This document shows positions 12,991 through 64,000 of a DNA stretch of 64,000 bases, one piece after another. This DNA comes from Blasia pusilla (Eukaryota). The notes under the pieces are model-generated. The model was not told where the DNA came from. It made no database searches and was given only the letters and a program-made list of their open reading frames with translations. The number at the start of each line of letters is the position of its first letter. Position 1 is the first letter of the stretch. The stretch covers positions 7,998,001-8,062,000 of the forward strand of contig CM114271.1 in assembly GCA_050084515.1 (NCBI GenBank), in the 5' to 3' direction. Both the position numbers and the translations under genes were made by a program.

Positions 12991-13389
12991 TAAACAAGAA
13001 AGTTTCCAAACATGACATTCCTAACACAACGGATCTATCCTCGACCTCATCTAACACCTCGGGATGAAGGTACACTCAAGACAGTCTGTTGGCTCTCTAT
13101 GTCGTCGCCACGATAGATCTCTACCTATCGGCTACTAAGATGCGATCGTTTTTGTGCGCATACACATCACTACATAACCCACATTTCTGGTCACATCTAC
13201 GCACCACACAACACCGATCTTCCCAACACACGGGTCGATCCATCCATGAACCAAACAACTCACACATATACATTGAGATCTCACAATTGTCCTCCTAGTT
13301 GGCACTTGGGTCCCCCCAACTCCAGATAGCACACACATATGTACCCGACATGATCTACTATCTTATACACATCTAGCACTATTGATGCC

Positions 13390-21365: not shown

Positions 21366-22488
21366 AGGGCTGATATTCTGGCAAGAGAGAGTAAGAGTGG
21401 AGACGAAGAGATGAAGAGAGGAGAATCTCTCTTAAATAAAAAGGACAAAATCCTTAATCTCTTTTCCAAACTTTCTTCTATTTTTTAAGATTCTCCTCTA
21501 CTTCAATTGCAATAAATGTTTAGAAGAGAGATCTAAGTGAACTAGATTGGTGCACAAACTAACCTTATTTTTTCATACCAAGATGTGAAGTTGGAAACGT
21601 GAAGCTTGCTTCGGACATGCTCGAATCCTCTATGTGCAAGAAAGATTAGGGACTGAAGGGTATAAGAGCTCTTACTAAACTATCTCTGTAAGCCATATTT
21701 ACGATTAGACAAGGAGACAAGGATCAATCTTCTCAATAGATGAAAAGATTTTGGGTTCTTAATGCAAGACTCCCAACCTCATTCCCAACACTTTGTCATA
21801 ATTCAACAACCAGTCATGACAATCTTGGAGATAAAGGAACTCAAAAAGAGGAGAGGAGATTTGTTGATAGACTTATTCACAAACTCCATTACAGTTTTTT
21901 GGAAATCAAAATGTTGCAAGAAATGGATACTAAAGATGCACTTGGAAGCACAGGATACACAGAGAAGTTTGCAACCTCTTAGAAAAACAGATGCTATAGA
22001 AGATTAGTTTGAAGTGAATGGAAGAACCAGAGGAAAAAACATAAGAATTTTTCCATGAAACTTGTAAGAATCCGATAGGTTGCATGACATGACTAGAAGA
22101 GCTAGAGTTGTAAGATATGACTAATCAGAGATAAGGAAAAAAAAATGAGAGGAAAGACATGACCATTGAAATACCAAAGGAAATAACATGACCTACATGT
22201 GAAGATACGACAAGAAACTCGCACATTCCATTCTGATCAGATTTGAGAAAAAAGAAAGAGCAACTGAAATTAATAGGAGGAAATCATCTAGTAGAGGAAG
22301 AGTTGGAAGATATGAGTCATCAGAGATAAGGAAAAAAAAAAAAAAACAACCTATCATCTATGTGGAAATATGATAGGAAACCCACACGTTTAGATCAGAG
22401 ATTAGGAAAAAAAAAAGAGCGACTCAAGTCACCCAAACATGCAACTTGTCAAAATCCGAGAGGTTGCATGATAGCATGTAAACAAAAA

Positions 22489-23514
22489 TGTCGTGCGCCT
22501 ACTCCCCTCGAACGTCAATCTTAGAGTTGCGGAAGTGTACGTTCAGTAGGGCACGCTCTCATCACCGACTTGCATCCAAATGGACTCACGATAGCCTAGT
22601 TTGGTTCAAGCAGCCTTCCAACCCACCGAGTCCTTGACTCGGCACCTCATCAAGCTGAACCTTCCCTTATTCCTAGGTTCCCAACATAGGCTTGTCTTGC
22701 GAGACTTGGGAACAGACTTTCTGGTTAGTCCAGGTACCTAAAACGGTGTTTGCGTGCCTAGTGGTCCCAATCGTCCAATGGGCCTCGCATGAGCCCCCTA
22801 ACAAAGACTCACCAAGTGAGTCGCGGGTTGGAGTCCAATAGGGAACTCAAAAATCCTCTCTATTGGACTTAGTTTGGGTTTCTGATCCCAACGCCAAAAC
22901 TCCCGATCCATTCCGTGCCCTTAAGTCGCCCCGCCGCGCCCAAAGTGGGCATTGAGTCTCAAGCACCCTTGGAGACCTTCCCCCTTACTATTAATTTTGG
23001 GGATTCCCGGACTCCCTCTATCTTTGGGGAAGGGACATCCGGGCCCCTCTTTTTGGCCCTTAATCCCACTCCCTATACGGTTAGTTTTGCCCCATATCTT
23101 AGCCTCTACTTAAGCATTTGCCAAGATCTTTGGTGCGATGGAACCATCTTTGCATAAGCTTTCCAATTCTACCTTAATTTTTCCAAATTCATCTTGTGAC
23201 TAAAATTTATGGTCAAAAGTACAGTTGAAAACTCCAAACGCTAGCCACGTCCCAAGTCTGGTTCTCACCCCTTGGCCACGTCTCCTCCACAACTCGACTT
23301 CTCTTGAGTCCGAGTTCCGCGTTTGGTTTTAGTTTCCTTAGTTACAACTATAAACGCACGAAAAACTTAGAACGCTCACCTTGCTTGCATCTCGTACTTG
23401 TGTTTCTTAACGTGTCTCGTCTTGAGACCTCTCCAAAGCGCAAACCATCCTAGTGTGAGCCCGCTAGAGTTTGGATGTTCCGCTTGGCGCTTGTTTGGTT
23501 ATGAGGGTCACCAA
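22489..23514 (-). mobile_element. Solo LTR, family X, inserted in MULE copy 1
   Basis: Starts TGTCGTGCGCCTACTC; full-length similarity to 12148-12990; A-rich flanks on both sides. Confidence 0.8.
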
Positions 23515-24403
23515 GAAAAAGGTATGAGAATGATTTTTCATCCATATGAATAAATGTTAGGAAACACAAGTTCCATTAAGACCTTCAACCCGTCGGAATC
23601 TGACAGGTTGCAAGACATGACAACATGAGGAAAAGTTTAGAGACACAACTCCCAAGGGAAAGATAAAAAAAGATAAGGAAAACATTGATACCACTTGCAA
23701 CCTGTCGGAATCCGACAGGTTGCAAGCAATGTCTTTGATTTCTTTATCTTGCAACCCGTCAGAGTCAACGGGTTGCAAGACACTACCATAAACCATAAGA
23801 GGTTATTTGAGACCTCTTATACAAGTTTGAACCTATCAAAAACCAAAATCTCACAGATCACATCCCCAATCAGATATGTGACATGTTCAGAATCCTATGG
23901 GTTGCGAGGCACTACAATCGTCTAGTAGAGTCCAAGAGAGACCAGACACACCACAAAAAAAAAGAGCATAAATTATAGTTTGAACCTGTCAGAATCCGAC
24001 ATGTTGAAGGTTGCAAGCAACGTAGAAAAGCAAAAAGTAAGAAACCGCTTGACTATTGAGACAAGCAACTCGTCAAAATCCGATGAATTTCACGTCAAAG
24101 GCAATGAAAAAATGCATATACGGTTTAAAAAACCAACTCATCATTCAGTCATGCAACTCGTGTAATCCTCTAGAATCCTACTAGTTGCAAGATATCCCAT
24201 CATTCCAAATGACGCTCCTAGAGAAAACCAAACAATAGCCATGCATGGAAGAGTATCAATTCAACTTTGAACTTGTTGGAATTTGACATAAAAAAAAACA
24301 ACACGCCATTCAAATCAAGAGAAGAATTGAATGAAAATAAAGTCCCTTATTACAATCTGATTGCAACTTTGAAATTTACAATTTATTTCCTAAACTAGAA
24401 AGT

Positions 24404-27400
24404 CTAGTCTATGATCTCTTCTACCTCATCATCTACAAAAATGCTCCTAACTCTCCTTGGTTCCTGCACAATAGACTTCTCTTGATATACAAGTGGCTCC
24501 TCTGTCCGATTGTAGATGGGGATTAAGAAAGAAGGGGAATTCGAAAGCCTTGCCCCCTAGGTACGCCATATCGGTCCCATGTCATCGGAGAAAAGTTCCA
24601 ATGCCTATCCCAACAAATATTCTTGCATGCTCTGCAAGGTGACCCTCATCCAATATCAATACGTGCTATGCCGCTTGAAACTACTACCTCCAAAATTCTT
24701 GAATTGATTAAACCCGATAAATCAATTTGACTCATTCGTCATCATCCGAGAGCTCTTCCAAACTGATTTCTGACTTTTCTCGCCCGATTTTAGGAAATAC
24801 ATGTAATGATGATGGTGTCACTACCAATGGCTCTACTGTAGGTGCATTTTGCCTTGGAGGAAATTTGTAGACTCCCACCAATCTTTCGTAATCCGCCATT
24901 TCCTCTTGGAAAAGGTCAAATAGCTGCCTCCTTGCCTCAAGGCAGAGTACTCCACTCTGATAGGCGGCTCTAATACTTATCCTTAATAACCCAACCAAAT
25001 CCAAGACCAAGTCACCTCGCCTTGAGCAGAGCTCCATGAGCGTCTGAATTAGGGTCGGGGACTTCTCCCTTCCTCCAAGCAGCGGCCTACCTTCCTCCAT
25101 GTAAATTCCTGGGGGTGAATTGTACATGTTGTCTAATGTGTATCCATCGGAGGCTGGATCAACTAGATCCTGGATCTGAAACATCTACAATCCGTCAAAA
25201 TCTCACGGGTTGCTTTGCAGTTTGCAAAGAACTTCGATTGCAACCCTTCAGGTTCAGACGGGTTGCAAGGGTTACATATGTGCAGAGCGACCCATCAAAA
25301 TCCAACGGGTTACTCTCTAATATTCATGAAATTGGAACTGCAACCCTTTGGGTTGTAAATCCTATTTTCTGGATCTATGTACAACTCATCAGATTTCGAC
25401 AGGTTGCACTTAAGCTCACAAAATAACTTCTTGCAACCCGTCGGAATACGACGGGTTGCTCTCCAATATTCATGAAACTGGAACTGCAACCCTTTGGGTT
25501 GCAAATCTTGTTTTCTAGATCTATGTGCAACTCGTCAGATTCCGATAGGTTGCGTTTAAGCACACAAAATAACTTCTTGCAACCCATCAGAATACGACGG
25601 GTTGCAAATAGACCAAAATTTTCAAAACAAAATCATATGGAATAGTAGCATAATTTTGTAGAACTAACCTGGAGTTGATTTTTTGGAGATCTCAACGTAT
25701 ATTCATTCTTGATCACCCAAGATTGCATCGTCTGCCACTTCAGAGATCTTTTCATGCAGTGAAGGTTGAAGAGCTTGTAACGACTGGATCATAGAACGCT
25801 CGTAGGGTTTGCTTGTTTAGCTCTTATGGGTCGTTGACGCCCAACCAGAGCGGACAATTCAACACTTCTCAGTCACTTGTATCTTGCGCCATCTCCATGT
25901 CGTACATGGAGAATGCGTCTCCATCTGGAAGAGAAGCCTACAATTTGTATGCGCCAAGATACTTGCTCCACAAACCTGCATTCACACAAGAGATAGGGAA
26001 CCTGTACACTATCCGTTGAGCAACTCATTGCCACGATAACACCCCTGCTTGTTCTAGAAGATCTCTCTTCTTTTTTGGAAAATCCCATTTTTTGGGTCGC
26101 CTGTGTCATCATCCAGATCCCCTAGTGGAAAAATTTGCTTTTCAAACATCGTCATAAATCAGGGGTTTTTTGCTTGCTTATCACGGATGTCATCCAGCCA
26201 TAGTTTGTAGTCCTCAGCCAACTCTACGCTAGCCTCCTCTGGAACAGGCTCAATCTTCTTGAGCTCGATCTGAAGACTCGCAATTATCCACTTCCCGAGC
26301 ACCCGCAATGCATCCTAGAAGGACCATTCTCTCAGCCCGTGAGAAAAAACAAGGTCCGAAAACCCGGGCGGATGGTGTGCCACCCTCTATTGGGCCTTCA
26401 TCCCTTCAAGATTGATTTTCATCTGTCTAATCCACCTGAATTCTAAGACTCCAAAAAGGAAAAACCTTTGGATGCAATTGAGAGACACCTTCTCTCCTAT
26501 TCGCCTCTGGGAATCGATCTTCATCCCTCTTTTGTTGGCGTTTAATAATCGCCTTCAACGTCTTGTAGAAATACTTACCAAGTTTAGGGTTTAGCAGAGC
26601 GATGTAATATTGCATCTTGCTCGTTGTGTACTTTGTTCGCTGCCGACATAGAAGCCTAGATAAACTTGGCTCTCTCCGAAGTTGAAACCTATTCCCTGCG
26701 CTCCAGCTCCAATGTTGCACTTCTCTTTGCGGCCTAGATTTTTTACCAACACAAAAGGGTGACAGTTGCATCTTGGGAAATTTATGTATTTGCCCAAGTC
26801 TTGTTCTTAATCTATGCTCCTTTGGTGAGTATCTCATCCACCAAGTCCTCTCCCATAAATCCTTTATACTGCAAAGGGTGCGTTGTAAGCACCTTCTTAA
26901 CTTTGTCGCATTCCTGGATTTAATGATGGGTGACGTTCCCTTTCAAGACAATCCTACAATGTTGAACCCATTGTTAGAATTCTGATCTTATGCAACGCGT
27001 CGGATTTCAATGAGTTGCACACAAAGAGACTCATATCCATAAGATGGATCATCTCAGAGGTTGCATATCCATAAGATGGATCATTTCTAGGACCCATCTT
27101 ATGGATATGCAACCTCTCAGACTACGACGAGTTGCATATCCATAAGATGTCTGAGAGGTTGCATATCCATAAGATGGGTCCTAGAGTGGTGCAAACCGTC
27201 GGAGTGCGACGGGTTGCAATCAATCCCCGAAAGCCTAAAATTCACACCATTATTTGGGTTAAGCTAAAACGTGTCACACAACCTTTTTGCAACCTGTCGG
27301 AGTCTAAGAGGTTGCCATTTCATCATAAAATTCACGACAAAAGCTTGATCCGTGACCCTTTTGCAACCCATCGAAGTCCAACAGACTGCAATTCACTCCT

Positions 27401-28790
27401 ATCATCCATGTCTATGGCTACAACTTTGGACCCTCCTACAACCCTTTGGAGTCCAAAGGGTTGCAATTCCATCTTATCATCAATCTCCATGGCTAAAACT
27501 TGGACTTTTCCGCAAGTTGTCGGAGTCCAAAGGGTTGCAAAATCCCCTGGCATCCAACTTTCTGGCATAAGGGTGGACCCTTATGCAACCCGTTGGAGTC
27601 CAACGGGTTCCCTTTGAATCTATCCACACTAACCAAGAATCCTTCACAAGTATACACTACAACCCGTCGCACTCCAACGACTTGCATTTTTTCCAATGAA
27701 CTAGACTTGGAATTCATATATTTGCAACATGTATGACTCAACGGGTTACCACTTTTTGTCTCCCCTACTTCAAGACATTGTTTCTTTTGGACTTAAGAGC
27801 AACCTGTCGGACTCAACGGGTTCCCACTTTTGTCTCCCCTACTTCCAGACATTGTTTCTTTTGGACTTAAGAGCAACCCGTTGGAATTGGATGGGTTGGA
27901 TGCACAAGCAAAATCATTTTTGCGTGAGGATGGCTTCCCTCACGCAAAAATGCGCCTCCAATGAATTTTGGCGCTCCTCTAAAATTTGGAATTTGGCCAT
28001 GAATGTATGGTTCCCATCCCAATTGTAGAAGTACAAGTTATGCATCCACTTGTACTATGTTCGTGCCATCCCTTTCCTGAACTCCACATCCCTCATTCTC
28101 CAAAACACATCCAAGTTCTCCATATCTTCTTTAGTGACCAGGGACAACATTCTATGTTCATTACAAGGCTGAACATACAAGGGAGGGAAGTTATCCACGT
28201 TTGAAGGTGTTGCAACCGACTTCTTCAACTTGGCAATGCCTTCGTCCGACTGAATTTCTTGAATGTATTCCATAGTTTGAAGTTAGCACAGATGAATCCC
28301 TGGTCCTTCGGGCCATCCATCACCGCCATGTGTTTTACAACCTACGAGAATTTCAACAATGTCAATTAGTTGCAATTTTCTTCAAAGCACGGCTTTTAAA
28401 TGCTCTGTAACAATTTTCAAAGATTGCTTACCCTCTTGAAGATTGGGTCGTTGTCGAGGCCGGCGAGTTTCTCTAGAGCATGAGGAGGCAACTCTAGTGG
28501 ATATTCATCATCGCATAAGAGGTCAATTTCTTCCACTGGACTAAAGGAAGAAGACGTTTTTCCTCTTCCTTTGGGGATGTCCACCATCTCCACACTTTTG
28601 ATCCTCTTCACCTCCTCATTGCTCTTCGAAATATTTTCATTGTTATTTTCATTCATAGTACCGCTTGACTTCCAAGAGGAGACATCCTCCATTTCAACGC
28701 TATCTGTGGTACGTGCGGGGATATCTTCATCCATGACGACAACCTTCTCCTCCCTCACTTTCGCCAATTGAGCTCTCCTGGTGGTGGCAT
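24404..28790 (-). pseudogene. Amino-methyltransferase-like cargo gene, copy 1 (motif IV region deleted at ~25790)
   Basis: GGREKSPTLIQTLMELCSRRGDLVLDLVGLLRISIRAAYQSG (24732-25184); upstream exons homologous to 43.8-46.7 kb. Confidence 0.75.
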
Positions 28791-29211
28791 TGTGACGTCA
28801 AGAGGTCATTACAAGTCGTCGGATTTTGAGAGCGAATGACCCATTGCATACTCTTCCCAAAAAATGTGGTTATGCTGCAACCAGTGGGAATCAAACGGGT
28901 TGCAACCTGTCGGATTTCGACGGGTGCATTGACCTCGTGAATGGTCCAACCCAGGCAAGCTAGACTCTGTCATAAAAAATCAACATGTCAAAATCCAACG
29001 GGTTGCATTTTAGGAATATTCCTCTTCTCTTGGTCAATTAGCTATCGATAGTAAAACCTAACAACCAATTGCAGGTTAGATAAATTTTGTGAGAATATAA
29101 ACGGTCACTATTTACTATAAATTCAACATTCTCATTCTTATTCTTGCCCTGTTAGAATCATTGTTGTAGTCATCTGCAAATGGAAAATTATGTTTAGCTT
29201 TCATGTGGCAG

Positions 29212-32200: not shown

Positions 32201-33382
32201 ACTTTCTTGAATAAGAATTGTAGAAGGGTTGGGCGACCACTACAATTTTGATCGTCCTTGTGAAACGATCAAAATTTTGTCAACCCGAGAAGCCTGGTAG
32301 TGGTCGCCCAACCCTTCTACAGTTCTTATTCAAGAAAGTCCTGCATACTCGCCTTATTCCATCCGATCCTGCCCTCCAAGTGGATCCACGGTGTTTCGAG
32401 AAATATGCCACCTCTTAAGGTTGCAATCCACCTCAATGACCAGAATGCCATGTTTTTAACATCCCCCAAGACTGGATGTTGGGAAGTCCCAGCAACAGAA
32501 GAATTATGAAATAAGACATTCACTGATTTTGTAGAAGTTACTTTAACTCGAATTCGGGAGCTATATGGTGTCTGCGAAGACCTAGGTGGGATTATTTCAT
32601 CATACACATCAATCACCGGGTTCGTTCCTTGATGTTGACGCTTGATTTGCTTGAAGTCAAGGTGTTTATCTAGTCTCAAGGAGTCTCGCTTAAATTGCTC
32701 TACCACCATCTCTATGGTACGTCTTGAAACACGCCCATGAATGTCCCCACCAATGAAGACATCTTTCTTGAGAAGAGTTCCGGCTACGAACCACTACAAA
32801 AATGGGCCAAATATCCCCATAATTTGGCCCATTGTTGTAGGGACCATTTGCATACTAGAGGAAGTGGACAATCTTCCAAGTGGAGGGTTCAAACTCATAG
32901 ACGGAGGGAGTTTGGAACATGTTTGCATTATAGAGACATCCTAAACCCTTTGGATCCAATCTAAGATTGATGTCAACTTGTATCCGGAGAAGGTGGATGA
33001 TCTCAATCCATTATTTTTGTTCGAGTCAAGAAATGGGATGAAGAGAAAGAGAATGTGTGGGCCAACGATGGAGAGAGCAAAGCGAATTGCATCAACTTAG
33101 GAGGCCAACATGGAAATCATTGCCACAAATGACGTTCATAGTGGGAATGGAATAGGAAGGATGTATTGTGAATGCAAGTGTTTCTAGGATGTATGTTGTA
33201 CATATTTTTTGCTTTCCCATATGTTCTTGTGATAACTTTGTCTAAAGAGAGACAAGTGGGAAAAGTCATTTCCCTTGTAAGCACGTGAACTGTGTTTTGC
33301 TTGTAGCTTTAAGAGAGTCAAAGCTAGGAGTAGGAATCCACCAACCAAAGAAGTTCAAAGTATCCTAAACAAGCCACTTTGA
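29212..33382 (+). pseudogene. MULE-type DDE transposase with SWIM finger, copy 1
   Basis: YGFMAENA, R*DGFHW, WLNWWTIRMREWG; donor CAG|GTGAG at 30909; CSCDNF...FPCKH SWIM at ~33220-33285; many stops; internal inverted duplication. Confidence 0.8.
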
Positions 33383-33539
33383 GGATGCAACATTAGGTTT
33401 GACAGTAGTTTGGAAATGCCAAACTATTCAGTGCAATATGGAACTTTCATCAATGTGCTTAAATGAATTTTTTTTCAGACCTTGAATGGAAAAAGGGATT
33501 TGTTCCACATTTGTGCTTCAATGATTTTTCCAATTTTAT

Positions 33540-37700: not shown

Positions 37701-38020
37701 TTTGAAGAGAGTTTCCGTTGGGTTGAAGAGAGGAAACTTTTTGTGTGATTTTTTTTGCACTTTTGTTCTCACTGCTTAGGCACTCCCACACTTTTTTTTT
37801 CCTCTTCCACATTTTGGCAACCCGTCAGAATCCCACCAGTTGCAATTTGCACAAATTTTAAAAAATTTAAAATTCATTGGAATCATAAATGTGGAACAAA
37901 TCACTTTTTCCATCCAAGGTCTGGAAAAAATCTATCATTTGCCCTGGGCTTAAGAGAGTTCAAGCTCAAAGTGAAGGTTCTAGCAAATTAAAATAAAATC
38001 TAAGACCTCATTTTGCATCC

Positions 38021-43440: not shown

Positions 43441-43803
43441 CCACGTGCAAAGTTCCATAACGGCCAACACGTCGCCGTTAGTACGACCCAACGACCCAAC
43501 GGCCAGTTCAACGGCTTGAAAAGTATAAAAGTCTGAGGTTTCGATCATTTCAATTTTTCATTTCACGATTTCATGTGCTCTTCCTCGCAGCAGCTGACGT
43601 TACCTTTCCGTTGCCAAACTCGGTTACATCACCACTTCGCTGGAAGGTTACAATGATCCAGCACCCGACGCTTTGAGGGTTTGATTTTGGCAAGCCCATC
43701 TGCTGGAGGGTCACAGCGCTTCATCATGAAACGCTTCGAGGGATCCATTGTGCACAGGAGCAGATTAGACTGTCGAGGAGGAAGAATTGACCCAACGTGC
43801 ACC

Positions 43804-53219: not shown

Positions 53220-56200
53220 TGATAGTTGATTGGCTTAGCAAGTTGAGGAGGTTTGTGCCAACAATAGATTCCGGGACGGCCTACACGAGTTCTTGAGTGT
53301 TCCTAGATGGATGGTGGCAAGCTCATGGGTTGCCTAGGAGCATTGTATCTGACCAAGATCCAAAGTTCACCAATGCCTTTTGGAAACACCTATTCAAAAG
53401 GTTCAGGACCAAACTGAGCTTTAGTTCCGCCTTCCATCCTCAAACGAATGGGCAAACGGAAAGAGTAAACTTGGACATTAACCAACTTTTAAGGAATTAT
53501 GTGAATGCGGACCAGCAAGATTGGGCAAGTTGGCTAAGCATGACTGAGTATTGTTACAACTCGACCAAGCATTATGCAATTGGAGAATCTCTGTTTCTTC
53601 GGGCGTTTAATTGATAACTAGAAAGGCCTCTTGACTTGGCCCTTTTGAGGGGTGCCACATCAGCACACACGCGTCAAGCAATGGCATAAAGTATGTTAGT
53701 GGAGATGCAAGAATGACAAGAATAAGCGAGTAGATACCAAATCAATCTTAGTCTTTCCAAGGCTCAACCAAGATACGTTAAGCATGCTAACAAGAGTCGA
53801 CGCCAAGAATATTGGATTATATATGATCAAGGCAAAGCTATTTGAGGATGTGCATACATTGGAGTTTCTAGAAGAGTTCAAGATTCACCCGACTTTCCAT
53901 ATGTCATTATTGAAGAAGTGTCTTCAAGACAATGTGCGTCTGGAGTGGAGAATGGTGTTGAGACTACAACTTGTCATCATGAATGAGGAACCAGAGAGGT
54001 GGAAACCATTTTGCATTCCAGACGTATAGAGGTGGATCAACCCCACCAAGCACTATAGGTGTTACTGGGAGTGGACCAAGGGAGAAGGAAGGGAGTCTTG
54101 TAAGTTAAATCTCCTTATGTTTGTATTATTTTACTACATTAGAATGTTTGTAATTGCATTGAGAGCTTCTCATAATACGATGTATTGACTCTCCTTGGTT
54201 TGTATGTATGAAAACTAGTAGGAAGTAGATGCAACAATAGGTTGGAGGACTAAAGAGCTGGAACAAGAAACAACAGCAACGAGTGAGAGCCTTTTCATGG
54301 GGGCTGGTATTCTGGCACGAGAGAGGAAGAGAGGAAAGGAGAGTCTCTCTTAAAAAAAAGGGGCCAAATCCTTAACCTCTCTTCAAAACTTTCTTCAATA
54401 TTTGAGGTTCAAACCCTACTTCAAATGCAAGAAATTTTTAAAAGAGAGTAAGAAGTGCATAACTTTGGGGGAAAAATATCCATATTTTTTCAAACCAAGA
54501 TGTGACAATGGAAATGTTAACATCAACAATCAATCATGAAAGTCAATGAGAGCTCATCATCCCTTTCCAACTAGAGAGACCAACCACCCATTATCAATGA
54601 ATTTATAGGTGGACTTTCGGATTTGTAGGGAAAAATAGGGAAGATGAAGTATGACAGAGCAAACAAAGTAAAGGTGATTTGTGGCAACATACTCACAGAA
54701 ATAAGCAGAGTTCGCTTACTCATATGAGAAGAGGTATGTGATATGTCAACAAGTAGTCATGAACTTAAAGGAACTCGGGTGCACTTGGCCATGGAGGCGA
54801 CTAGTAAACTCCTAGTTGCTCTCTCGTAATCTGCCTGTGCCTCCTCGTAGAGTGCAAATAGTTTTTTCCTCTTCCCCTTTAATGGAAAAATGTTTCTTCC
54901 ACTCTGCCATACCGCTCTAACATTCGCCCAATAAAGTTTTATTCTCATAATCTAGAGAGGCCTATTCTCATAATAGTTGGTGGCTTCTGCTCCGACGGGT
55001 TGCATCAACATTTGTTCAGAAACCTCTTCTCGTATGAGTTGGTGGCCCTCAGATGTAGTCCTTCCCAGGCTTCCTCCAAACATGCAACCCATTGGAAATC
55101 GACGAGTTGCAATAGCAGGAAATCATCTGGACTAGCTACATATCAGATATCGATAGGTTGCATGAGAGAATTGAGATTCATAAGGATAAAAGAATAATAA
55201 AAGAATAAATTATCAAGACGTTCCATGTTTCAAAATTGCTCTTACTCGTGACATAACGTTGGTAGGTACGAACAAATTGAAAGAGTGAAGTCATATGAAA
55301 TTCACAACAGTGAGTAATCTGGACCTGCAACTTTTTGGAATCCGACAAGTTGAATGACATCATGAAAACAAAAAAGGCTCTGGAGGAGACCTCCATTGGT
55401 TGCATCCAGACAAGCAATCCATAAAAAATTGACGGGTTGCAATAGCAGGCAATCATCCAGACCTGCAACATGTTGGATTGTGACAAGTTGCATGATAGGA
55501 TCGAGATTAAGGGTTAAAAAAAAGGCATGTTATGAAGACCTATCTTGTTTCAAGAGAGTTTTCACTCGTGACATAACCTAGGTACGAAAAAAGATATAGA
55601 GGGAAGGGTCCCAAAAATTCATAATAGTCAGTCCTCACATGCAAATTATCGGAATCCGACAGTTTGAATCACATCAAGAAATAAAAAAGGGCTAAAAAGG
55701 AGAGCTTCACAAGCTGCATCGAGAAATGCAACGTGTCGGAATCCGACGAGTTGTAGGACACGTCAACATCGCTAGAGGAGAAGTGCCTATCATCCCGTTG
55801 TAAATATCGCAAGACATGAGAATTTATGTCAAGGTCTGCAAATATCGCAAGACATGCAAATTTTTGCATACATCTTCAGTCATCCAAGTTCCATTTTTGG
55901 CTTGCAACCTGTTGAAGTCCGACCGGTTGTAAGATGAAAAAAAATATCCATTAGAGATTACCAGAACAAAGGAGAAATAAAAACACGGACCATTCAAGTC
56001 AATTAGGAAAACATTACAGAAAAATCCGAGGGGGAAGAAATAAGAAGAGAATAAACAATGTCAACTCTTACAACCTGTCGGAATCCGACAAGTTGCAAAC
56101 TTGGTCCCTGGTTTGCAACCCGTCTGAATCTGACAGTTTGAAAACTTGGTCCCTAATTTGCAATCCGCTAGAATCTGATGGGGAATCAAAATGAAGACCG

Positions 56201-56348
56201 TCCAGTAGAGAAATCAAGAAAGAATCAAGAACGAGCTTGACCAAACACAAAAGCACCAAAATTGAGAAAACACTTTAGGAACCATCGGTGTTCAGAAACT
56301 ATAAGTCCTTTACTACATCCGAGGGAAACTCATAAATTTACATTTGAT

Positions 56349-59300
56349 CTAGTCTATGATTTCTTCATCCTCATCATCTACAAATTTACTCCTAACTCTC
56401 CTGGGTTCCTATACAAAAGGAATGTCTTGGGATACAAGTGGCTCCTCTAGCCAATTGTAGATGGGGAATGTAGGGGAATTCGAGAGCCCAACCATCCCCC
56501 TAAGTACACCATATTGGTCCCATGTGTGATGATTTGTGTCCAAACACCTTCCCTCACAATAAATCTTGTATGTTGTGCAAGGTGACACCCATCCAATATC
56601 AATATGAGCTTCGCCGTTGAAACCACTAAATCCCAACTCCAAAATGCTTCAATCAATTAAACCCGATAAATCTTTTCAACTCACTTGTCGTCGCTCAAGA
56701 GCCCTTCCAAAATAACTTTCGGCCTTGCCCTCATGATTTTCAGAATTGCAGGAAGTGATGATGGTTTCATTGCCAATGGCACTGTTGGTAGAGCACTTGG
56801 ATTTGGAGGCGAGTTGTAGACTCCCACCAGCCTCTCGTAATCTGCCTTTGCCTCTTTGCAAAGGTCAAAAATTTCAGGCCTTCCCTCAAGGTAGAGAATG
56901 TTCTTGCTACTCTGCCAAGCGCCGTTGATACTTGCCCCTAGTAGGCCTACCAAGTCTAAGACCAAGTCACCCGGCCTTGAGCAGAACTTCATGAGCGTCT
57001 GCATCAGGGCAGGTGACTTCTCCCTTCCTCCAAGTAAGGGGATCCCTTCCTGCATGAAAATTCCCAAGGGAGGGGGGGATTATAAAGACAATCTAATGTG
57101 TACCCACTCGAGCATGGATCAACTGGATCCGGGATCTCAAACACTTGGAAGTTGCACTCCGGTCCCACAAAGCAGTAGACATATGAGTGCTCCATCTGTG
57201 AACAAGACAGGTGCAAAACATTGTCAGCTTAAAGGTGGAATAATCCTACAATCTCCTGGAAACCGATGGGTTGCTCTCCAAATAGTGATACAATCTATAG
57301 AGCTCGCTGATTGCTCATTAGCCTAGAAAGAAGAGCAACCCGTCGAAGTTTGACATGTTGCTCTACAACTTAGACAAAAACTTGCATGCAACCCGTCGGA
57401 ACCCGATGGGTTGCAAGTAGAATTGTGCCTTACCTATAAGAAACCCGTTGCTCTTTGACGGGTTGCACTTCATGTCACTACTGTCATTATCTATCTCCGC
57501 TGACATGCAATCCCTCAGAATCCGACAAGTTGCATGCCTGAACTTACTGTCTAAAATATGGAAAAAAAATCCAAAACCAACAACTTGGAACTTACCCGGA
57601 CTTGATTTGTAGCCGATCTCAATGGTTACCCATTTTTTATCACTTATAATTGTGCCGTTTGCCACTTGAGCGACCTCTTCACGCATTGAAGGTTGAACAA
57701 CTTGTCTTTTATCACTTCAATCATCACCAAGAAACACCCCCTGTCACGTAGATATGCGTCCACAAAAGAAAACATGAGAGCGATCTGGTCATAGGAAAGT
57801 GGGATATTCTAGTCTCGGACAATGTCAGCTGGATTGTCGTCCCACAAAAAAAATCCATAAGGCAAATCTGCAATGAGGAGGTCCACCGCCACCGCCTCAA
57901 CAACCCCATGGACCGTCCATGGGATGTGCCCATTTTGGAGAAGTTTACGCCCTAGCACGGTCAACTTCTCAATGGCGATTGTCAACTCATGCGTAGAAAA
58001 ACTCTACAATTCATCCACAAGATAAGTCTCGTGGAGAAGGACACTTATCTTGCTTGTTGTTTCCCAATGCTTGCCCAAGGATGATGGAGTGTATTCCACA
58101 TCCTTATGTCCTCCCTCGGACAATCTTGGCGCCTCCCGCTTTTGCTTCTCGCGAGTTTGTTGTCTACTTGTTGGTGTCTTGGTTACCTCATACTCCACAG
58201 GCATTTTCTTGGACGAGGACCTTATCCATCCCTCTTGCCTTGAAGACTCGACCTCGGAATGCCTTGACCCCTTCGCATTGGCTTTCGAGCCCACAGTCAT
58301 TTTTTTCCTTTGTGGTGATTACCTTGGACACCAACGTAGCTATCACGATGGCTTGCTCCTCCGCATCTCCTTCGAAATATTTGTCACTCTTCACAATTTT
58401 GGGGATGTCGTCCCTGCTAGCGACGACTCCATCATACACCACATGCAAGTTCCTGTCTATCATGTCCTCCAAGTTGTTGGAGTCCAACCAGATTGGACAA
58501 TTCAAGACCTCCCACTCGGAAATATCATGCCCCATCTCCATGTCGTACATGAAGAAGCCCAAAATTTTCCCACAATTTGCCAGGGAGAAGCCCACAATTT
58601 GCATGCTGTCGGATATTTGCCCCAGGTTTGTGCATTCACACAATAGATGAGCTACCTGTATACCATCCGCTGGGCAGCTCTTTGCCGGGATGACTCGGCC
58701 GCCTATTTCTGAAGATCCCGCTTCTTCTTTGTAAAATCCCATTTTCTCGCATCTATTTCTTCGTCCATATCGGCATGTGGGAGGATGTGATTCTTGAACA
58801 TCCTCCGAAAGCTTGGGTTTTTCACCAACTTATCCTTGATGTCATCAAGCCACAATTCATAATCTTGTGCAGCCTCCAAGTTGGCCTCTTCTGGAGCTGG
58901 CTCAATCTTTTTGAGCTCCGCTTGTAGACCCACAATCATTGACTTCCTGAGAAGCCATAGTGCATCCGAGAAGGACCATTCTCTAAGCCAATGGGAGATA
59001 ACTAGGTCTCATACTCCCGGAGGGTGGTGTGCCGCCCGCTTCTGCGCCTGAGTCCCCTCGAGACTGATTATCATCAGTCGGATCCGCCTAAACTCGGATA
59101 TCCCGGTAAGCGCAATCCAGCAAGACTTTCTCTCCAAGTCGACCCTGTAGGTATTCATCCCTCTTCCGCTGGCATTGGAGTATCGCCTTCAACTCCTTGT
59201 AGAACTCTTGGCCAAGTTTGGGGTTGAGGATTGCAATGTAGCATTGTATCTTGCTCGTAGTGTACTTTGTGGCTACAGACACGACAGCCTGAATGAAATT

Positions 59301-59420
59301 TGCCCGCTCCGACGCCGAGACATTTTCCCTTTGCTCCAGTTCCAATGTGGTGCTCTTCTTGCTTGCTTGGTTCTTGGACCATGAGAGAATCGTGACCACT
59401 GCATCTTGGGAGATTAAGGT
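56349..59420 (-). pseudogene. Amino-methyltransferase-like cargo gene, copy 3 (5' part deleted; best-preserved MTase motifs)
   Basis: VDLLIADLPYG (57886-57854); GGREKSPALMQTLMKFCSRPGDLVLDLVGLLGASINGAWQSSKNILYLEGRPEIFDLC (56681-57067). Confidence 0.82.
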
Positions 59421-59613
59421 ATTCACCGAGGACTCGTTTGAGAACGAAAAGCTCCAACTGAAATCACGGAATGAAAAAAATAATGAGCACAAGTTGTGCC
59501 TTATATAGTTTTTGAGTTGTTGAGATTATCGCCAACACTTGACACGTATAAGATATCTCAACACCAAACTCTCATTTGAGATATTTGTATAAGATATCTC
59601 AAAAACTCCATCA

Positions 59614-60044
59614 GGCACGGGATGGAACGAGAGTTTGGTGTTGGAACTTGAAACCCAAACGTGATCCAAGGGAGTGGACTTTGTTCGCCACACTTGGATT
59701 CCGACCCGAGATTCACTTTATGTGAGTCTCAGTTAGGGACTCATTGGATGTCCATTGGACAGTTGGAATTGCCAGGCGCAAAATGCCGTTTGAGGTCCCT
59801 CAACCGACCAAAAAGTATGTCCCAAGTCTTTCGAGACTTGCTCGTGTTGTAAACCGCGAAATAAGGAAGGTTGAGCTTGATGAGAGACCAAGACGAGAAC
59901 TCGGAAAGTTAGCTTGCTTATTGATCCAAGACCCGACTAACCAAAGTGCGTGTTTGGATGCAGATCAACGTTCAGAGCATGACCTATTGAACGCAAGCTT
60001 CCGCTACAACAAGATTAACGTTCAAGGAGAGTAGGCGCATGACA
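59614..60044 (+). mobile_element. Partial LTR, family X, in MULE copy 3
   Basis: Matches ~35085-35517, ends GAGTAGGCGCATGACA; no PBS follows. Confidence 0.85.
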
Positions 60045-61476
60045 GTTACGGTGCTTTGCACATGGGAAATGAATGCAAGGTCCCCACGCAACCTGTCGAA
60101 GTCTGATGGGTTATACTATTCCCTCATCATAGGAAGACGATACAAGGTGTCCGTGCAACTCATCGGAGTCTGATGGCTTGCACATTTCCCTCATCATAGG
60201 AAGATGATGCGAGGTCGCCGTGCAACCTGTCAAAGTCTGACAGGTTGCAAGGAAGAAGCGGCCATCATGCAACCTGACGGAACCAGATGGGTTGCACGGG
60301 CAAGGGGTTTGGACCAAGAATCCCCTGCAACACGACACACTCCAACATTTAGCACGGGGTCCATGGATCCTAGAGGGCCATCATCGTCGTATAACCTGTC
60401 GAACTCCAACGGGTTGCAAGCACGAAGGTGGCCAACAAATTGCACGTTGTCGGATTTGGACGGGTTGTTGTCATCGTCAAGACTTCCTGAGACCCCATGC
60501 AACCCTTCGGACTCTGAAGGATTGCAGAAGGGTCAAGATCAGACTGGGCCATCCTCGGGGTCGGCGAGGAACATAAGGAGGGGTTGCGACAGAGAAACCC
60601 ACCCCGGCTATCCGCGTGCAACTTGTCGGACTCCGACGGATTGCACTAAGGAAATCTTCTTCACTTTCTCACCCACCATTATGAATGCTACCACTAGTTT
60701 GAACCCACTCAGATTGCAACCTGACAGAACCCGACAGGTAACATCCAGACGGATTCCAAAATTTTGCAACCTGTCGGACTTCAAAAGCTTGCAACTTGTC
60801 GGAGCCATAAAATTTGCATGTAGACGGATTCGAAAATTTGCAACCAAACGGATTCTCAGGATTTGCAACCTGTCGGACTCTAATGGGTTATAACTTGGCG
60901 GAGTCAATCAATTTGCAAGTAGACGGATTCCGAAAATTTGCAACTTGGTGGATTCTTAGGGTTTGCAACCTATCGGAATTCGACGGGTTGCAACTTGGCA
61001 CAGTCAGAAAATTTGCAAGTAGACAGATTCCAAGAATTTGCAACCAAACGGATTTCAAGGGTTTGCATCTTGTCGGACTCTGACGGGTTGCAACTTGTCA
61101 AAATCCAACAAGTTGCAACCATAAGGATTCCCAAAATTTGAAACATGTCGAACTCTGACGGGTTGCAATTAGTCGGAATCCGACGGGTTGAACTACCCTC
61201 ATGAATGGCCAAACTGAGGAAATCAAAACAATCGAAAAAAATTCAACGTGTTTAATCCCAAGGGTAATTTATTTATAATGCACTTTCATTGGTCCAGACA
61301 GCGATAAAAATTTCACCTACCAACCAACAACTTGTCAAAAAATTTATGTCAAAAGTTTAACGATCACTATTCACTATAAATTAAACATTCTCATTCTTAT
61401 TCTTATTCTCCTACCAATGGAATCATTGCTTCTATCATCTCCAAATGGATAATTATGTGAAACTCACATATGGCAG

Positions 61477-64000
61477 TCATCTAGCGGTCCTTCCTCAATC
61501 ATAAATAATTCAACCACAAGCTCGTGATTCTTATGTACAAGTGAATGAAAATTTCCTCTCACTCTGATTTCTTCTCCAAATTGGAATATTTTTGTTTCTA
61601 AGGATGTAAGGATGGATGGAACAGAGGACGTCGTAGGTGAGACAGTCGAGCCAGGGATTGGAGATTCCAAAGTATGGAATCTCCTACCTTACACAAATGG
61701 ACAATATATAGTGTATGGCTTGCCTATAGAGCCTTCTGTTTCTCAAGTTGACGGTCTATAATTTCCTAATGCACCGAGCTCCACGTTTTCCACTCGTGCC
61801 TCTAGAGATCCAACATCGACTCCAACTTCAAACGTTTGTGATAATATTGTACTTCCTGAAGAGATTTTGGATGTCGTCGACCTCACGGGATCTATTGGAC
61901 ACCAACCGGACCCTACCTCTGCCTACTCATTCGTGTTGCGAGTTTCGGGCAATAGTTTGTTGTCGTCTTTGCCCTTGAAATTTTTGAAGCACATTCTTGT
62001 TGACAAGCTGCCGCCCACGTATGATGGAAATTGTATTTTCGAGTTGCCTCCTCTTGCAGGTCCCGCTCAAAAGAAAGATGGAGGAGGCTTGAAGGGTATG
62101 GACAAAAAGTCTGACTATCATCGATGGTGCAGGCTACAACGGACTAGTGCTTCAATTCCAGGTGGTGCTTGGATTGTTTCTTGCCGCCAATGCATTGGAG
62201 CCCTGGACTGTAGAAGTTATGGCTACTCGTTTCTCGAGCGCAATGAGCGAGTAAATACGTCGCAATTCCCCCCAAAAAATGTAGAAACTCCATATGAGGT
62301 TGGTGCGACCATAACGCCAGGAGGCCATCGATGTCCTTATTGTCAGGCCTCCCCTTTCTACATTAGAATGTGTCCAACATACACTTTTTTCATTGTGCAC
62401 AACTATAATTCTACGTCTGAGTACACAAGGCTTGCACTTCATGTTGAGTCCCACACTCATCCTATTTTTGGTGCAATTCACATACACATCAAGGAGGATA
62501 TGGCAAAGAAAGTGGCTGAGGTATATAGAAATTCTCCGTGATCAAAGCCCGGAGTGATCAAATTGACAACGTCACAAATTTGTGAACAATTTCTTTGAAT
62601 CCTTGGCCAGGGCAAGATCACGGTTGCCGAGGAGAAAAATTGGCATTTCTCGTTGATCCCGAATGCTTCAGAAACTTGCTACGTCACATACGAGTACTTG
62701 ATGAAATGGATGCCATCACCAGGATCAAGGCTAACTCCATGTTTTCATTTATTCAAAGATGGAAATTCATGGGCCAAGGAGGAAAGGGATCTAGAGCTTA
62801 TATCTTAAAAATGTCTACGACAGAGCCGTCCGCTGGCCTCAATCTTCTTCATAGAATGAGGGAAGGAGAAGATCTTTATAGCAGTTGGGTAAGCTTTGAT
62901 ATTTGTTACAGGGTGTTGAATGGACGGTTGACCATGGGTGCACACATTTACGACCATGTGAAGAAGGGACTCAAAACCATTTTTGTTTATGAGGTAAAAG
63001 CAGAAGACTTTGGAAGTTTGAAGATGTGCTGGTTATTCTTATTAGAGGTGGTGAAACAAAACAAAAGAGCACCTTTTGAAATTTATGGGTTCATGGCGGA
63101 CAATGCACAACCGAGATGGATTGCTATTAGAGAAGTGTTATGGGGTGGAGAAGTTCAACCAGAGAGAGAAAGGTCGGATGTTTTCCATTGGGAAGAGTCT
63201 GTGACTTGGTGCACCAAATCTTGCATCAAGGAGAATAAGAGAATAGAGCATGTTGCTCTACTCCAACGCTGCAAGGACAGAAAAACCTTAAAACAAGCCA
63301 TGGAGTGTCAAGAAGAACTTCATGGATGGTGGTGGAAGCATGCAATTGAGGGGAAATACAACGAGTTTAGTTCTTGGCTCAGTTGGTGGATCGTACGTAT
63401 GAGACAATGGGGAAACTTCATACGGCATGTGAGTTCAACATTTTCTCCTTTCTAGCTCACATGAAGAAATTGTTGAAAAAAATATGGTTGAAATCCAAGG
63501 TTGAAATCCATGAGAATGAAAGGGATTCCAAACTCTGAATCCAAGAAACCCATCGAAAATGACTGGTTGCCTTATTGTGCAACCCGTAAGAACCCGAAGA
63601 GTTGCATCACTCTGCAACCCGTTGGAAATCCGACGGGTTGCAAGTTGCAAGAAAGTATACTAAGTCAGCAAACCTCCGTTTTTCGACGAGTTGCAAGGTG
63701 TGTCTACCTACAATCCGTAAAATTCTGACAGGTTGCATCAGTTTGCAAGTCGTCAGATCCCGACGGCTTGCAAGTTCCAAGTGCGCAAGTTTACTCAGTC
63801 TGCAACTCGTCAGATTCCGACAGGTTGCATTAGTCTACAACCCGTCAGATCTTGACGGGTTGCAAGTTCCAAGTGTGCAAGTTTACTCAATTTGCAACCC
63901 CTCAGATTTTGCCAGTTTGCAAGTTTTTCCCTGTTGACACTTCTTGCAACTTGTCGAAATCCAACGGGTTCAAAGTCTGAAATTTGGTGAAAAAAATTCT
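61477..64000 (+). pseudogene. MULE-type transposase, copy 3 (first large exon plus palindrome-rich intron)
   Basis: ORFs 61867-62541 and 62595-63455: CIGALDC..RCPYCQASP..HVESHTHP; SFDICYRV, GFMADNA, RSDVFHW; donor GTGAGT at 63429. Confidence 0.87.

Follow-up and report, generated by a model that had tools for sequence, protein, structure and literature searches.

Three old copies of one Mutator-type element in a 64-kb window (the whole stretch of Blasia pusilla DNA that was analysed) carry arrays of a 29-bp palindrome, TGCAACCCGTCGGA-N-TCCGACGGGTTGCA, confined to their non-coding DNA. Tentatively, we read these dense arrays as putative symmetric double-stranded DNA sites for an element-encoded protein, which would serve self-recognition similar to that of VANDAL/VANC or Spm/TnpA.

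A palindrome confined to one element family in the window

The degenerate pattern of the original prediction, scanned over the window with at most 3 mismatches, matched 23 times (0.00 in 100 shuffles). A symmetrised PWM trained on these matches, which are the best 23 copies, found 121 palindromes at a cut-off of at least 8 bits (0.03 expected, the mean of 30 first-order Markov simulations), 108 of them reaching at least 16 bits. Beyond the 121 lie a few variants that are short or carry indels (at 23750, 63613, 25339 and 25485). The many dozens of degenerate copies originally claimed are real and more numerous than noted; of the named examples, one is perfect (see table), while those at 57387-57415 and 60964-60992 have 2 mismatches each. 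Information per position is 0.67–1.76 bits inside the palindrome, drops to 0.02 at its centre and does not exceed 0.18 in the flanks: conservation covers 29 bp exactly, the palindrome itself. Half-site spacing is fixed, with outer arms exactly 13 nt apart in 51 of 66 pairs, and all three element copies share one consensus, in which methylatable cytosines are dense (8 CG and 4 CHG positions of 28).

By self-BLAST, copies A, B and C are 68–80% identical. No TIR was found and no TSD established for them, and their ends are approximate. They have five syntenic non-coding zones in common, which differ in palindrome counts and repeat periods (25, 35, 67, 74, 92, 100 and 146 bp across zones). Spacers are mostly unrelated in zone 3 of copy A, and their identity is at random level (0.275) in zone 3 of copy B. 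In zone 4, two of the 3 palindromes of copy A have a TGCA in common, copy B includes a 67-bp x 7 array that has a centre variant of its own, and copy C combines a 67-bp array with a 25/50/100-bp array whose neighbours overlap by TGCA.

All 121 matches lie within 22056-63973, and all fall in the element DNA that is not conserved (14,407 bp), of which palindromes make up about 24%. None lies in the 19,929 bp of (coding) blocks conserved between copies, where conservation means BLAST alignability, which arrays tend to disrupt, and none in the 29,664 bp outside the three copies (gypsy, satellite, other-repeat and host-like DNA). Two foreign repeat insertions within zones are likewise free of them (22486-23238, which splits zone 1 of copy A and is an unrelated repeat, and 59614-60057). 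For this count, the transposase block of each copy was cut back at its edge by a single palindrome (31062, 40240 and 63578), all three intronic. Within the window, the palindrome is confined to one element family, where it occupies an intron, intragenic non-coding zones, a divergent spacer and one flank, as predicted; every cluster named earlier exists, and the reported absence from exons, gypsy elements and the host gene agrees with the empty coding blocks and the empty gypsy and host-like DNA.

Table. Positions of the element copies, their palindrome zones and their gene parts in the window
Feature	Position	Strand	Palindromes	Basis
Element copy A (accessory gene 2 minus, transposase plus)	21367..33541	+	32	self-BLAST blocks
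Zone 1, copy A (flank past gene 2 3' end)	22056..24092	.	6	PWM
Perfect 29-bp palindrome, T..A variant at positions 8/22	23696..23724	.		pattern scan
C-terminal exon, accessory gene 2, copy A	24735..25184	-		profile comparison
Zone 2, copy A (within gene 2), 146-bp tandem repeat	25186..25606	.	7	PWM
Zone 3, copy A (within gene 2), ~74-bp spacing	26991..27900	.	10	PWM
Zone 4, copy A (divergent spacer between two genes)	28876..29007	.	3	PWM
Zone 5, copy A (transposase intron)	31062..31418	.	6	PWM
Element copy B, in opposite orientation to A	37816..50276	-	42	self-BLAST blocks
Lone palindrome, transposase-side end of copy B	37816..37844	.	1	PWM
Zone 5, copy B (transposase intron)	39464..40409	-	13 PWM matches + degenerate copies	sequence reading
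Transposase first exon, copy B (IS256/Mutator DDE type, GCM/WRKY-like zinc-finger region)	40387..42272	-
Zone 4, copy B (divergent spacer)	42576..43433	.	10	PWM
Zone 3, copy B, 73-84 bp spacing	45020..45458	.	6	PWM
Central ORF, accessory gene 2, copy B (orphan)	46302..47198	+		database searches
Zone 2, copy B	47591..48089	.	8	PWM
C-terminal exon equivalent, accessory gene 2, copy B	48284-48661	+
Zone 1, copy B	49168..49490	.	4	PWM
Element copy C, truncated by window end	54301..64000	+	47	self-BLAST blocks
Zone 1, copy C	55083..56142	.	10	PWM
C-terminal exon equivalent, accessory gene 2, copy C	56684-57079	-
Zone 2, copy C	57247..57534	.	5	PWM
Zone 4, copy C, zone 3 merged in	60087..61192	.	24	PWM
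Transposase exon, copy C, two ORFs	61762..63452	+
Zone 5, copy C (transposase intron, cut by window end)	63578..63973	.	8	PWM

Turnover and decay of the arrays

Palindromes within zones have 63–76% pairwise identity, and 220 of 261 spacer pairs are without similarity. Palindromes exceed spacers in identity in two arrays (0.73 vs 0.36 and 0.74 vs 0.275), and between copies, palindrome columns are 69–76% identical and gap-free vs 50–60% with many gaps for other non-coding columns. These contrasts are inflated by the aligner, MAFFT, which anchors any palindrome on any other. Turnover of the arrays is fast, with an anatomy like that given for VANC21 targets in the available text of PMC5735166, and the likeness originally drawn to these motifs holds to this extent. 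In the youngest duplications, palindromes are no better preserved than spacers (0.83 vs 0.90; 0.79 vs 0.875), so constraint is arguable only for an older, active phase. After the three copies split, divergence of the palindromes kept roughly the pace of neutral DNA; one orthologous trio (31062/40240/63578) is roughly 72% identical, and divergence from the consensus is 5.7 of 28 positions. Between copies, dN/dS lies at 0.13–0.34 for 8 of the 9 segments and at 0.76 for the remaining one (dS 0.33–1.9), which indicates that the copies were mostly working lineages while they diverged.

The two arms of the palindrome decay independently, and there is no meaningful compensatory change. Paired positions per palindrome amount to 9.56 of 14 vs 9.50 +/- 0.10 with arms re-dealt (Watson-Crick count), and a pair-counting tool gave 77.2% pairing vs 76.5 +/- 0.5% re-dealt, a level reached by 33 of 500 shuffles. 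No position has an excess of double changes between arms. The covariation score was 0.179 vs 0.161 (reached by 5 of 500 shuffles), an excess so small that kinship alone can yield it, in a test of low power if most changes came after silencing. Arm symmetry beyond the shared consensus, one of the points on which the original prediction had offered to be refuted, is not preserved; independent change is expected of a duplex site read twice, not of a hairpin. Most of the decay is C-to-T change in CG and CHG contexts (24.9% and 21.9% transitions, vs 6.9% for CHH and 3.5% for A/T positions). With the pair under test excluded from selection, the mismatch profile is mirror-symmetric (r = 0.95). It is uneven at non-methylatable positions (1–5% at 4-5/25-26 vs 15–25% at 1/29 and 14/16; chi-square 67), a pattern that would fit position-specific reading.

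It seems rather unlikely that the palindrome is a functionless by-product, prone to recombination or slippage, which was seeded a few times in an ancestral element, spread by replication slippage, unequal exchange and short ectopic conversion, and was tolerated only where coding constraint is absent. Many copies do lie within tandem repeats, some arrays have their own variants (e.g. the GGTCTCC centre of the 67-bp array), and such an origin agrees with the absence of extra conservation in young units, the near-neutral decay since the copy split and the independence of the arms. However, exactly 29 bp would have had to move without flanks into five zones, given the low flank information and the mostly unrelated spacers, and such an origin would explain neither the uneven, mirror-symmetric conservation of non-methylatable positions nor why foreign insertions and neighbouring repeats are free of the palindrome.

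A role as hairpin or cruciform is improbable. In RNA, hairpins in introns or UTRs would feed small-RNA pathways or affect splicing; in single-stranded DNA, a structure-specific nuclease would recognise them, in the manner of bacterial REP/RAYT or of IS200/IS605 ends. The arms could form a perfect 14-bp stem, several zones including the intron are transcribed, any two copies are complementary to each other and the very small covariation excess points the same way, but pairing is near the re-dealt level in both counts, the 1-nt centre is too short for a loop, no ORF has an HUH or Y1 domain, and there is no Rfam match. Bacterial REPs are short imperfect palindromes multiplied in non-coding DNA and tied to RAYT transposases (one nuclease family); the REPs act as hairpins and are dispersed through the intergenic DNA of the genome. 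The palindromes described here are similarly short, imperfect and multiplied in non-coding DNA; unlike REPs, they lack compensatory pairing and an HUH protein, and are confined to the element itself.

We also give little credence to a host-directed site, read by a host factor (a transcription factor, or a protein that silences or targets methylation) and not by an element protein: the dense CG and CHG positions and their heavy deamination would suit it, but sites that attract silencing should be lost, yet they were kept in five zones of lineages under purifying selection. Very unlikely is a miniature palindrome that moves on its own, like a MITE or foldback element, and prefers this element for insertion; it would account for the exact unit with unrelated flanks and for the TGCA common to neighbours in two arrays, as from repeated insertion into TGCA targets, but neither the 29.7 kb of adjacent DNA nor the two foreign insertions within zones contain it, no target-site duplication of 2–10 bp was found at any assumed boundary of the 121 copies (at 4 bp, a nominal bump of 0.329 vs 0.266 +/- 0.020 has exact cases in only 1 of 121), and we know of no autonomous or non-autonomous mobile unit as small as 29 bp. 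In the duplication test, TGCA is indistinguishable from the palindrome's own sequence.

Candidate reader proteins

The predicted transposase fold matches an IS256/Mutator-type transposase with a GCM-like DNA-binding domain. Its family model matches the ISCth4 transposase (E 4.4e-5) and a DNA-bound GCM domain (probability 0.99, TM 0.50 on target). There is no Pfam match, and the transposase is of a rare, Pfam-negative lineage; the Mutator (MULE) call is upheld by fold and Atlas look-alikes, and not by Pfam. In copy B, the first exon is split into three ORFs by one in-frame stop and a frame change, and the intron borders read CAG/GTGAGT and, after a pyrimidine tract, TGTAG/G. Conservation ends directly after R-x-V-S (GTxAGy read through) in 8 of 8 transposase relatives.

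Accessory gene 2, the supposed MTase cargo, has no Pfam match and no (D/N/S)PP(Y/F/W/H) motif. A sub-threshold likeness to the AdoMet-binding region of DNA methyltransferases is limited to the C-terminal exon, and the sole trace is the best PDB profile match, M.RsrI, at a non-significant E of 0.43. The central ORF has 1 marginal match among 1.84 billion representatives and no Atlas match, with a dN/dS of 0.28 between copies B and C; the gene is an orphan. Taken as a whole, the original interpretation keeps its confinement, placement, array turnover and Mutator superfamily; its arm symmetry and MTase cargo are not supported.

If the arrays serve self-recognition, each palindrome would be a cis-acting double-stranded DNA site, with two 14-bp half-sites flanking one free base. 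Active ancestors would have kept dense arrays all through the element's non-coding DNA: in the spacer with the bidirectional promoter, in the intron of the transposase, in two non-coding zones within the accessory gene and in one of the flanks. We infer the binding, the binder and the consequence of binding: the reader would be a symmetric (dimeric) element-encoded DNA-binding protein, the first candidate being the transposase, via its GCM/WRKY-like zinc-finger region, and the second the orphan accessory protein. Half-sites of 14 bp are long for a single domain of GCM/WRKY type, which counts against this reading. The high site density would let the reader locate its own family and act on no other, possibly by activating transcription, opposing silencing or recruiting the transposase. 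With only one transposase-side end site in copy B and none in copy A, the layout is unlike classical paired terminal transposase sites. Arrays would have gained and lost units through tandem duplication, and after silencing of the copies, sites would have eroded as methylated cytosines in CG and CHG contexts were deaminated.

Comparison with known systems

Like VANDAL21/VANC21 of Arabidopsis, as portrayed in the available text of PMC5735166 and PMC10398659, the element is of the Mutator superfamily and has accessory genes. According to the available part of Hosaka 2017 (PMC5735166), VANC21 motifs occupy introns as well as intergenic and terminal non-coding DNA, where they form tandem repeats whose units are gained and lost; the family-specific motif, the high-density tandem repeats and the units gained or lost between related copies recur here. 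The VANC21 motif is 9 bp, non-palindromic and in one orientation in arrays, as given in the accessible portions of PMC5735166 and Sasaki et al. 2023 (PMC10398659), whereas the unit here, known from sequence alone, spans 29 bp, is palindromic and keeps its half-sites at a fixed distance. Unlike in VANDAL21, the transposase belongs to a separate Pfam-negative lineage, and no VANC relative is detectable in the element.

In En/Spm, TnpA binds repeated 12-bp subterminal motifs, some in inverted pairs, and this binding is tied to DNA methylation and element reactivation. The many short repeats and the putative element-encoded regulator resemble this TnpA system (see also bioRxiv 10.64898/2026.08.24.746577). 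Spm, however, is a CACTA element with subterminal sites, whereas the element here has a Mutator/IS256-type transposase and its palindromes fill internal non-coding DNA, including an intron. SIRC (short interrupted repeat cassettes) of Arabidopsis likewise consist of short repeats interrupted by diverse spacers and are tied to mobile elements, in the available text of PMC10342631; they are a descriptive direct-repeat class with no assigned reader, while here one long palindrome is confined, in the 64-kb window, to one autonomous element family.

For AtMu1, a transposase with TIRs on either side is described, and the accessible part of that account mentions no internal palindrome arrays, with 'palindrom' at 0 occurrences (bioRxiv 10.64898/2026.08.24.746577). 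In the same text, the Mutator transposase alone activates cognate AtMu1 copies in a sequence-specific manner, a precedent by which a Mutator transposase alone could read family-specific sites.

Palindrome arrays in the non-coding DNA of a Mutator-type element

The 29-bp palindrome TGCAACC(C/T)GTCGGA-N-TCCGAC(G/A)GGTTGCA recurs in three diverged copies (A, B and C) of one Mutator-type transposon. Searched with up to three mismatches, this pattern gives 23 matches in the window and none in 100 shuffles. A symmetrised matrix derived from these 23 matches finds 121 copies at a score of at least 8 bits, ranging from 22056 to 63973, where 0.03 are expected (30 Markov simulations), not counting a few forms that are short or carry indels. 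Inside the 29 bp, each position has 0.67-1.76 bits of information, apart from the central base with 0.02 bits; the 20 bp on either side do not exceed 0.18 bits. Because the information stops at the 29-bp edges, the conserved unit is exactly the palindrome. A gap of 13 nt separates the outer arms in 51 of the 66 pairs, and half-sites outside the 121 number 40 at 10 bits (about 12 expected), several of them being indel variants.

The copies are colinear over blocks of 68-80% identity, and each carries two divergently placed genes, one encoding the transposase and the other a multi-block accessory gene. Separating the copies are gypsy fragments that match protease, RT-RNase H and Tf2 SH3; two parts of these fragments, 33932-34671 and 52395-53131, have 74% identity to each other. 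The clustering of three DNA elements of one family amid gypsy pieces hints at reinsertion nearby or at a target preference common to them. The original prediction had placed the motif in the element's non-coding DNA, and within the window this holds throughout: all 121 palindromes fall in the portion of element DNA without conservation between copies (14,407 bp, of which they make up 24%, at about one per 119 bp). The conserved blocks (19,929 bp) and the sequence outside the elements (29,664 bp) contain none. For this count, the edge of the transposase block was trimmed by one palindrome per copy, all three being intronic. The palindromes occupy five syntenic zones, namely the 3′ flank of the accessory gene, two stretches within this gene, the spacer that separates the starts of both genes, and the intron of the transposase. 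An unrelated repeat has inserted twice within these zones (22486-23238 and 59614-60057), and both insertions are free of palindromes. This dispersed repeat, 450-750 bp long with copies 71-82% identical, two of them inside the palindrome zones of A and C, is a candidate solo LTR or non-autonomous element. Rfam gives no matches at gathering thresholds, and literature searches with the motif sequence itself return unrelated primer-type matches only. Among the publications listed on palindromes, introns and transposase binding in Mutator elements, none describes such arrays.

Feature coordinates in the window, with strand in brackets where assigned
Feature	Coordinates	Remarks
Tandem satellite	2748-6707	Period ~217 bp, units 88-96% identical (self-BLAST offsets); units degenerate towards 6707
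GC-rich stretch	12000-18000	GC 0.47-0.52, C-over-G skew -0.25 to -0.35; its ORFs of at least 85 aa lack any Pfam match
Internal repeat of GC-rich stretch	11865-12147 / 17985-18309	
Unrelated dispersed repeat, four copies	12136-12720; 22485-23238; 34770-35517 (-); 59614-60057 (-)	
Copy A	~21367-33541	Self-alignment blocks
Copy B	~37816-50276	Inverted; self-alignment blocks
Copy C	from ~54301	Cut by window end; self-alignment blocks
~200-bp GA-tract block	21367-21603 (A); 50093-50276 (-) (B); 54301-54520 (C)	
Gypsy-type fragments	33542-37815; 50277-54300	Separate the element copies
Aspartyl protease match	36728-37132	In gypsy-type fragment
RT-RNase H match	50951-51451	In gypsy-type fragment
Tf2 SH3 match	53700-54026	In gypsy-type fragment
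Transposase first exon, copy B	40387-42272 (-)	
67-bp array of copy B	43003-43433	5 of 7 units have GGTCTCC at the center in place of GGA-N-TCC
ORFs through palindrome arrays	42865-43533 (+); 60174-60890 (+); 39741-40259 (-)	173-239 aa

The ends of the element are approximate, which leaves 8-11 bp target-site duplications of the Mutator type unreadable. Among the best 25 of 97 inverted-repeat pairs by length in copy B, there are only palindromes and no terminal inverted repeats, and the end regions show no similarity when BLASTed against each other. No long terminal inverted repeats of the Mutator type were found by these comparisons; non-TIR MULEs exist. A block of about 200 bp in all three copies starts with GGCTG(G/A)TATTCTGG, continues into a GA-rich tract, and sits 450-560 bp beyond the outermost palindromes, while a (GAGAGGA)n tract is located at the opposite end of copy B (37606-37649). 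Block and tract may be the true, low-complexity element ends. Copy A also contains an inverted duplication, as 31477-32240 and 32284-32792 both match copy B at 38712-39461, in opposite orientations.

Predicted binding sites and competing readings

We tentatively favor a reading in which a protein encoded by the element binds the palindromes as symmetric sites in duplex DNA, packed into dense arrays. It is rated most likely because the anatomy matches that of VANC21 targets and because a Mutator transposase alone is reported to activate copies. The VANC21 study describes the targets as family-specific motifs, densely placed in introns as well as in intergenic and terminal non-coding DNA, that form fast-changing tandem repeats (Hosaka 2017, PMC5735166), and a 2026 preprint reports that a Mutator transposase alone activates its cognate copies (bioRxiv 10.64898/2026.08.24.746577). 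The likeness to VANDAL/VANC lies in a motif confined to the element's own non-coding DNA, here within the 64-kb window, and in tandem-repeat motifs that gain and lose units between related copies.

Functionless palindromes that are merely prone to slippage are a possible but more doubtful explanation. The arrays do turn over: Tandem Repeats Finder returns 17 rows with periods between 25 and 201 bp (25, 35, 45, 50, 67, 74-75, 92, 100, 146 and 201 bp; two non-palindrome repeats left out), the number of palindromes per syntenic zone differs between copies, and neighbors in two arrays overlap via their terminal TGCA. The 67-bp array of copy B, in which most units carry the same variant center, shows that whole arrays grow from one variant unit. 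In the youngest duplications, the palindrome is no better kept than the spacer (0.83 vs 0.90, and 0.79 vs 0.875). ORFs running through the arrays, which encode repeated CNPS/QPVG-like peptides, are no evidence of genes, since the repeats keep the frames open.

Within zones, the palindromes are 63-76% identical, and spacers are similar in only 41 of 261 pairs, 21 of which come from one 67-bp array. Two regular arrays of about 74-75 bp have palindrome identities of 0.73 and 0.74, compared with spacer identities of 0.36 and 0.275. Between copies, palindrome columns are gap-free with 69-76% identity, and the remaining non-coding columns reach 50-60% and contain many gaps, although the aligner anchors any palindrome on any other. 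The palindrome consensus is identical in all three copies, and the intron arrays are partly orthologous between copies, with alignable spacers. The genes have dN/dS values of 0.13-0.34 between copies in eight of nine comparisons (0.76 in the other), so that much of the divergence arose with both genes under purifying selection. Taken together, the shared consensus, the partly orthologous intron arrays and this divergence under selection lead us to infer an ancestor that already had arrays of near-consensus palindromes with unrelated spacers. There are only two routes to near-consensus palindromes among unrelated spacers: constraint on the 29 bp, or placing of exactly 29 bp without flanks. As for the genes, the transposase has a dS of 0.33-0.71 and the accessory gene one of about 1-1.9, two to three times as high for the same copy pairs. 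This excess may come from recombination between lineages, from an accessory gene that evolves faster, or from errors in aligning short segments.

The palindromes differ from their consensus at a mean of 5.7 of 28 positions. Transitions affect 24.9% of CG positions, 21.9% of CHG positions (the outer C of CCG), 6.9% of CHH positions and 3.5% of A/T positions, with transversions at 6.5-9.2% in all position classes and a CpG observed/expected ratio of 0.59-0.71 across the window. Judged from its base changes, this decay spectrum is the signature of CG and CHG cytosine methylation, and it would point to a plant-like host. Leaving the tested pair out of the selection gives a mismatch profile with mirror symmetry (r = 0.95), and mismatches at non-methylatable positions are uneven, at 1-5% vs 15-25% (chi-square 67, p 8e-14).

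A function as a hairpin is unlikely. Repeats recognized as hairpins, of the REP/RAYT or IS200/IS605-like kind, would call for compensatory stem changes, yet Watson-Crick pairs number 9.56 of 14 per palindrome, against 9.50 +/- 0.10 with right arms re-dealt among copies, with no excess of double changes at any position. With a pair-counting tool that scores G-U as paired, 77.2% of cells are paired (76.5 +/- 0.5% shuffled; reached by 33 of 500 shuffles), two-sided changes number 66 (55.9 +/- 7.3; 32 of 500) and the covariation score is 0.179 (0.161; 5 of 500), an excess so small that it is attainable from relatedness alone, many units being tandem duplicates. The covariation of arms that the original prediction looked for is thus not borne out, pairing being within 0.7 percentage points of re-dealt arms, in a test whose power is low if most changes postdate silencing. 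As the pairing is close to that of re-dealt arms and the excess is explicable by relatedness, the symmetry of the arms would be inherited from a symmetric founder rather than kept by compensation. The ORFs scanned also lack an HUH/Y1 nuclease domain. Reading of the site by a host factor, instead of an element-encoded protein, appears just as unlikely as the hairpin. More improbable still is a miniature mobile palindrome (MITE or foldback), which would have been placed as such: target-site duplications give the placement route no support, with none found across six assumed boundaries and eight lengths, and within the window no copy lies outside the element.

The transposase and the accessory gene

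The first exon of the transposase ends at a textbook CAG/GTGAGT junction, and the intron behind it in copy B is 946 bp long and closes with a pyrimidine tract and TGTAG/G. Database relatives are just eight among 5.8 billion clusters (P0001-P0003 and P0005-P0009), all unnamed and without a Pfam domain. Conservation is lost directly past R-x-V-S in all eight, which corresponds to a splice donor that is read through, and since every ORF reads into this same donor, the relatives apparently come from intron-containing genomic contigs. For copy B, whose read-through has an in-frame stop, the stop-free ORF was taken instead. The MULE and Transposase_mut models (Pfam PF10551 and PF00872) have no match at E <= 0.01 in 150 of 153 ORFs of at least 85 aa, none at E <= 5 in the transposase ORFs, and none at E <= 1 in P0001-P0003; a phmmer search of the PDB with the transposase is likewise without a match.

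Structure prediction goes further. An AF2 model of P0001, built from a 12-sequence alignment with a mean pLDDT of 69, has the ISCth4 transposase as its best PDB match (E 4.4e-5, probability 1.00, TM only 0.12/0.23). ISCth4 belongs to IS256, which is treated as Mutator-related (PMC7780238, PMC3942029). Look-alikes in the Atlas have MULE or ZSWIM1-3 RNaseH-like domains (score 0.94), which we take as a lead only. The transposase is accordingly modeled with an IS256/Mutator-type RNase H-like DDE catalytic fold. The P0001 model also resembles the DNA-bound GCM domain 1odh_A (probability 0.99, TM 0.50 on target, E 0.033; no sequence-model match), Cys/His columns are kept in the family alignment, and the family has an N-terminal beta-rich domain (residues 44-121 of P0001, pLDDT ~80). 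The model supports a Mutator/IS256-type enzyme with a predicted WRKY-GCM1-like DNA-binding region.

The accessory gene had originally been taken for methyltransferase cargo, a label not supported beyond one match below threshold. N6_N4_Mtase or any other Pfam model has no match at E <= 5 in the 13 main ORFs, nor at E <= 0.1 in 78 ORFs of 45-84 aa from the accessory-gene regions. The catalytic motif of beta-class N6/N4 methyltransferases, (D/N/S)PP(Y/F/W/H), is absent from the three forward frames of the gene region in all three copies. The label comes down to the C-terminal exon, whose three-copy profile has residues 226-276 of M.RsrI, in the AdoMet-binding region, as best PDB match, at a non-significant E of 0.43. 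That region is marked by motif X and FxGxG, and the glycine pattern is altered in the exon. The AF2 model of this exon (pLDDT 41) is too poor for use, and the exon has no homologues among longer proteins. A single-sequence phmmer search of the PDB with the accessory gene is empty, the Atlas gives no match, and 1.84 billion representatives give one marginal match, whose own Pfam matches are irrelevant. By these comparisons, the accessory gene is an orphan.

It is very improbable that the gene descends, with much divergence, from the kin of beta-class adenine methyltransferases and has the GA-N-TC center of the palindrome as its target. GA-N-TC is the site of the CcrM/HinfI group, which are beta-class adenine methyltransferases, and this consensus center, with its free middle base, is intact in 42 of 121 palindromes. 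If this were true, the element would write an adenine mark at the centers of hundreds of its own sites, or merely read it if the protein is catalytically dead. A eukaryotic transposon would then carry a 'self' label of its own, taken over from the modification systems of bacteria, with the larger palindrome around GA-N-TC providing family specificity.

Implications for transposon self-recognition

To our knowledge, experiments have established that transposons recognize themselves sequence-specifically in very few families, chiefly VANDAL/VANC and Spm/TnpA. In the present case, an unrelated and unannotated branch of the Mutator superfamily shows a VANDAL/Spm-like anatomy in an extreme form that is unusually easy to read: about a quarter of the non-coding DNA consists of a single site that is long and symmetric and has exact edges and a fixed spacing. 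Should binding of an element-encoded protein not be confirmed, the spread of a 29-bp unit without its flanks would still need explaining. If binding is confirmed, the family would offer a second independent system for the co-evolution of elements and their recognition sites, a defined 29-bp operator and a candidate reader domain for structural work, and possibly a tool for sequence-specific chromatin targeting.
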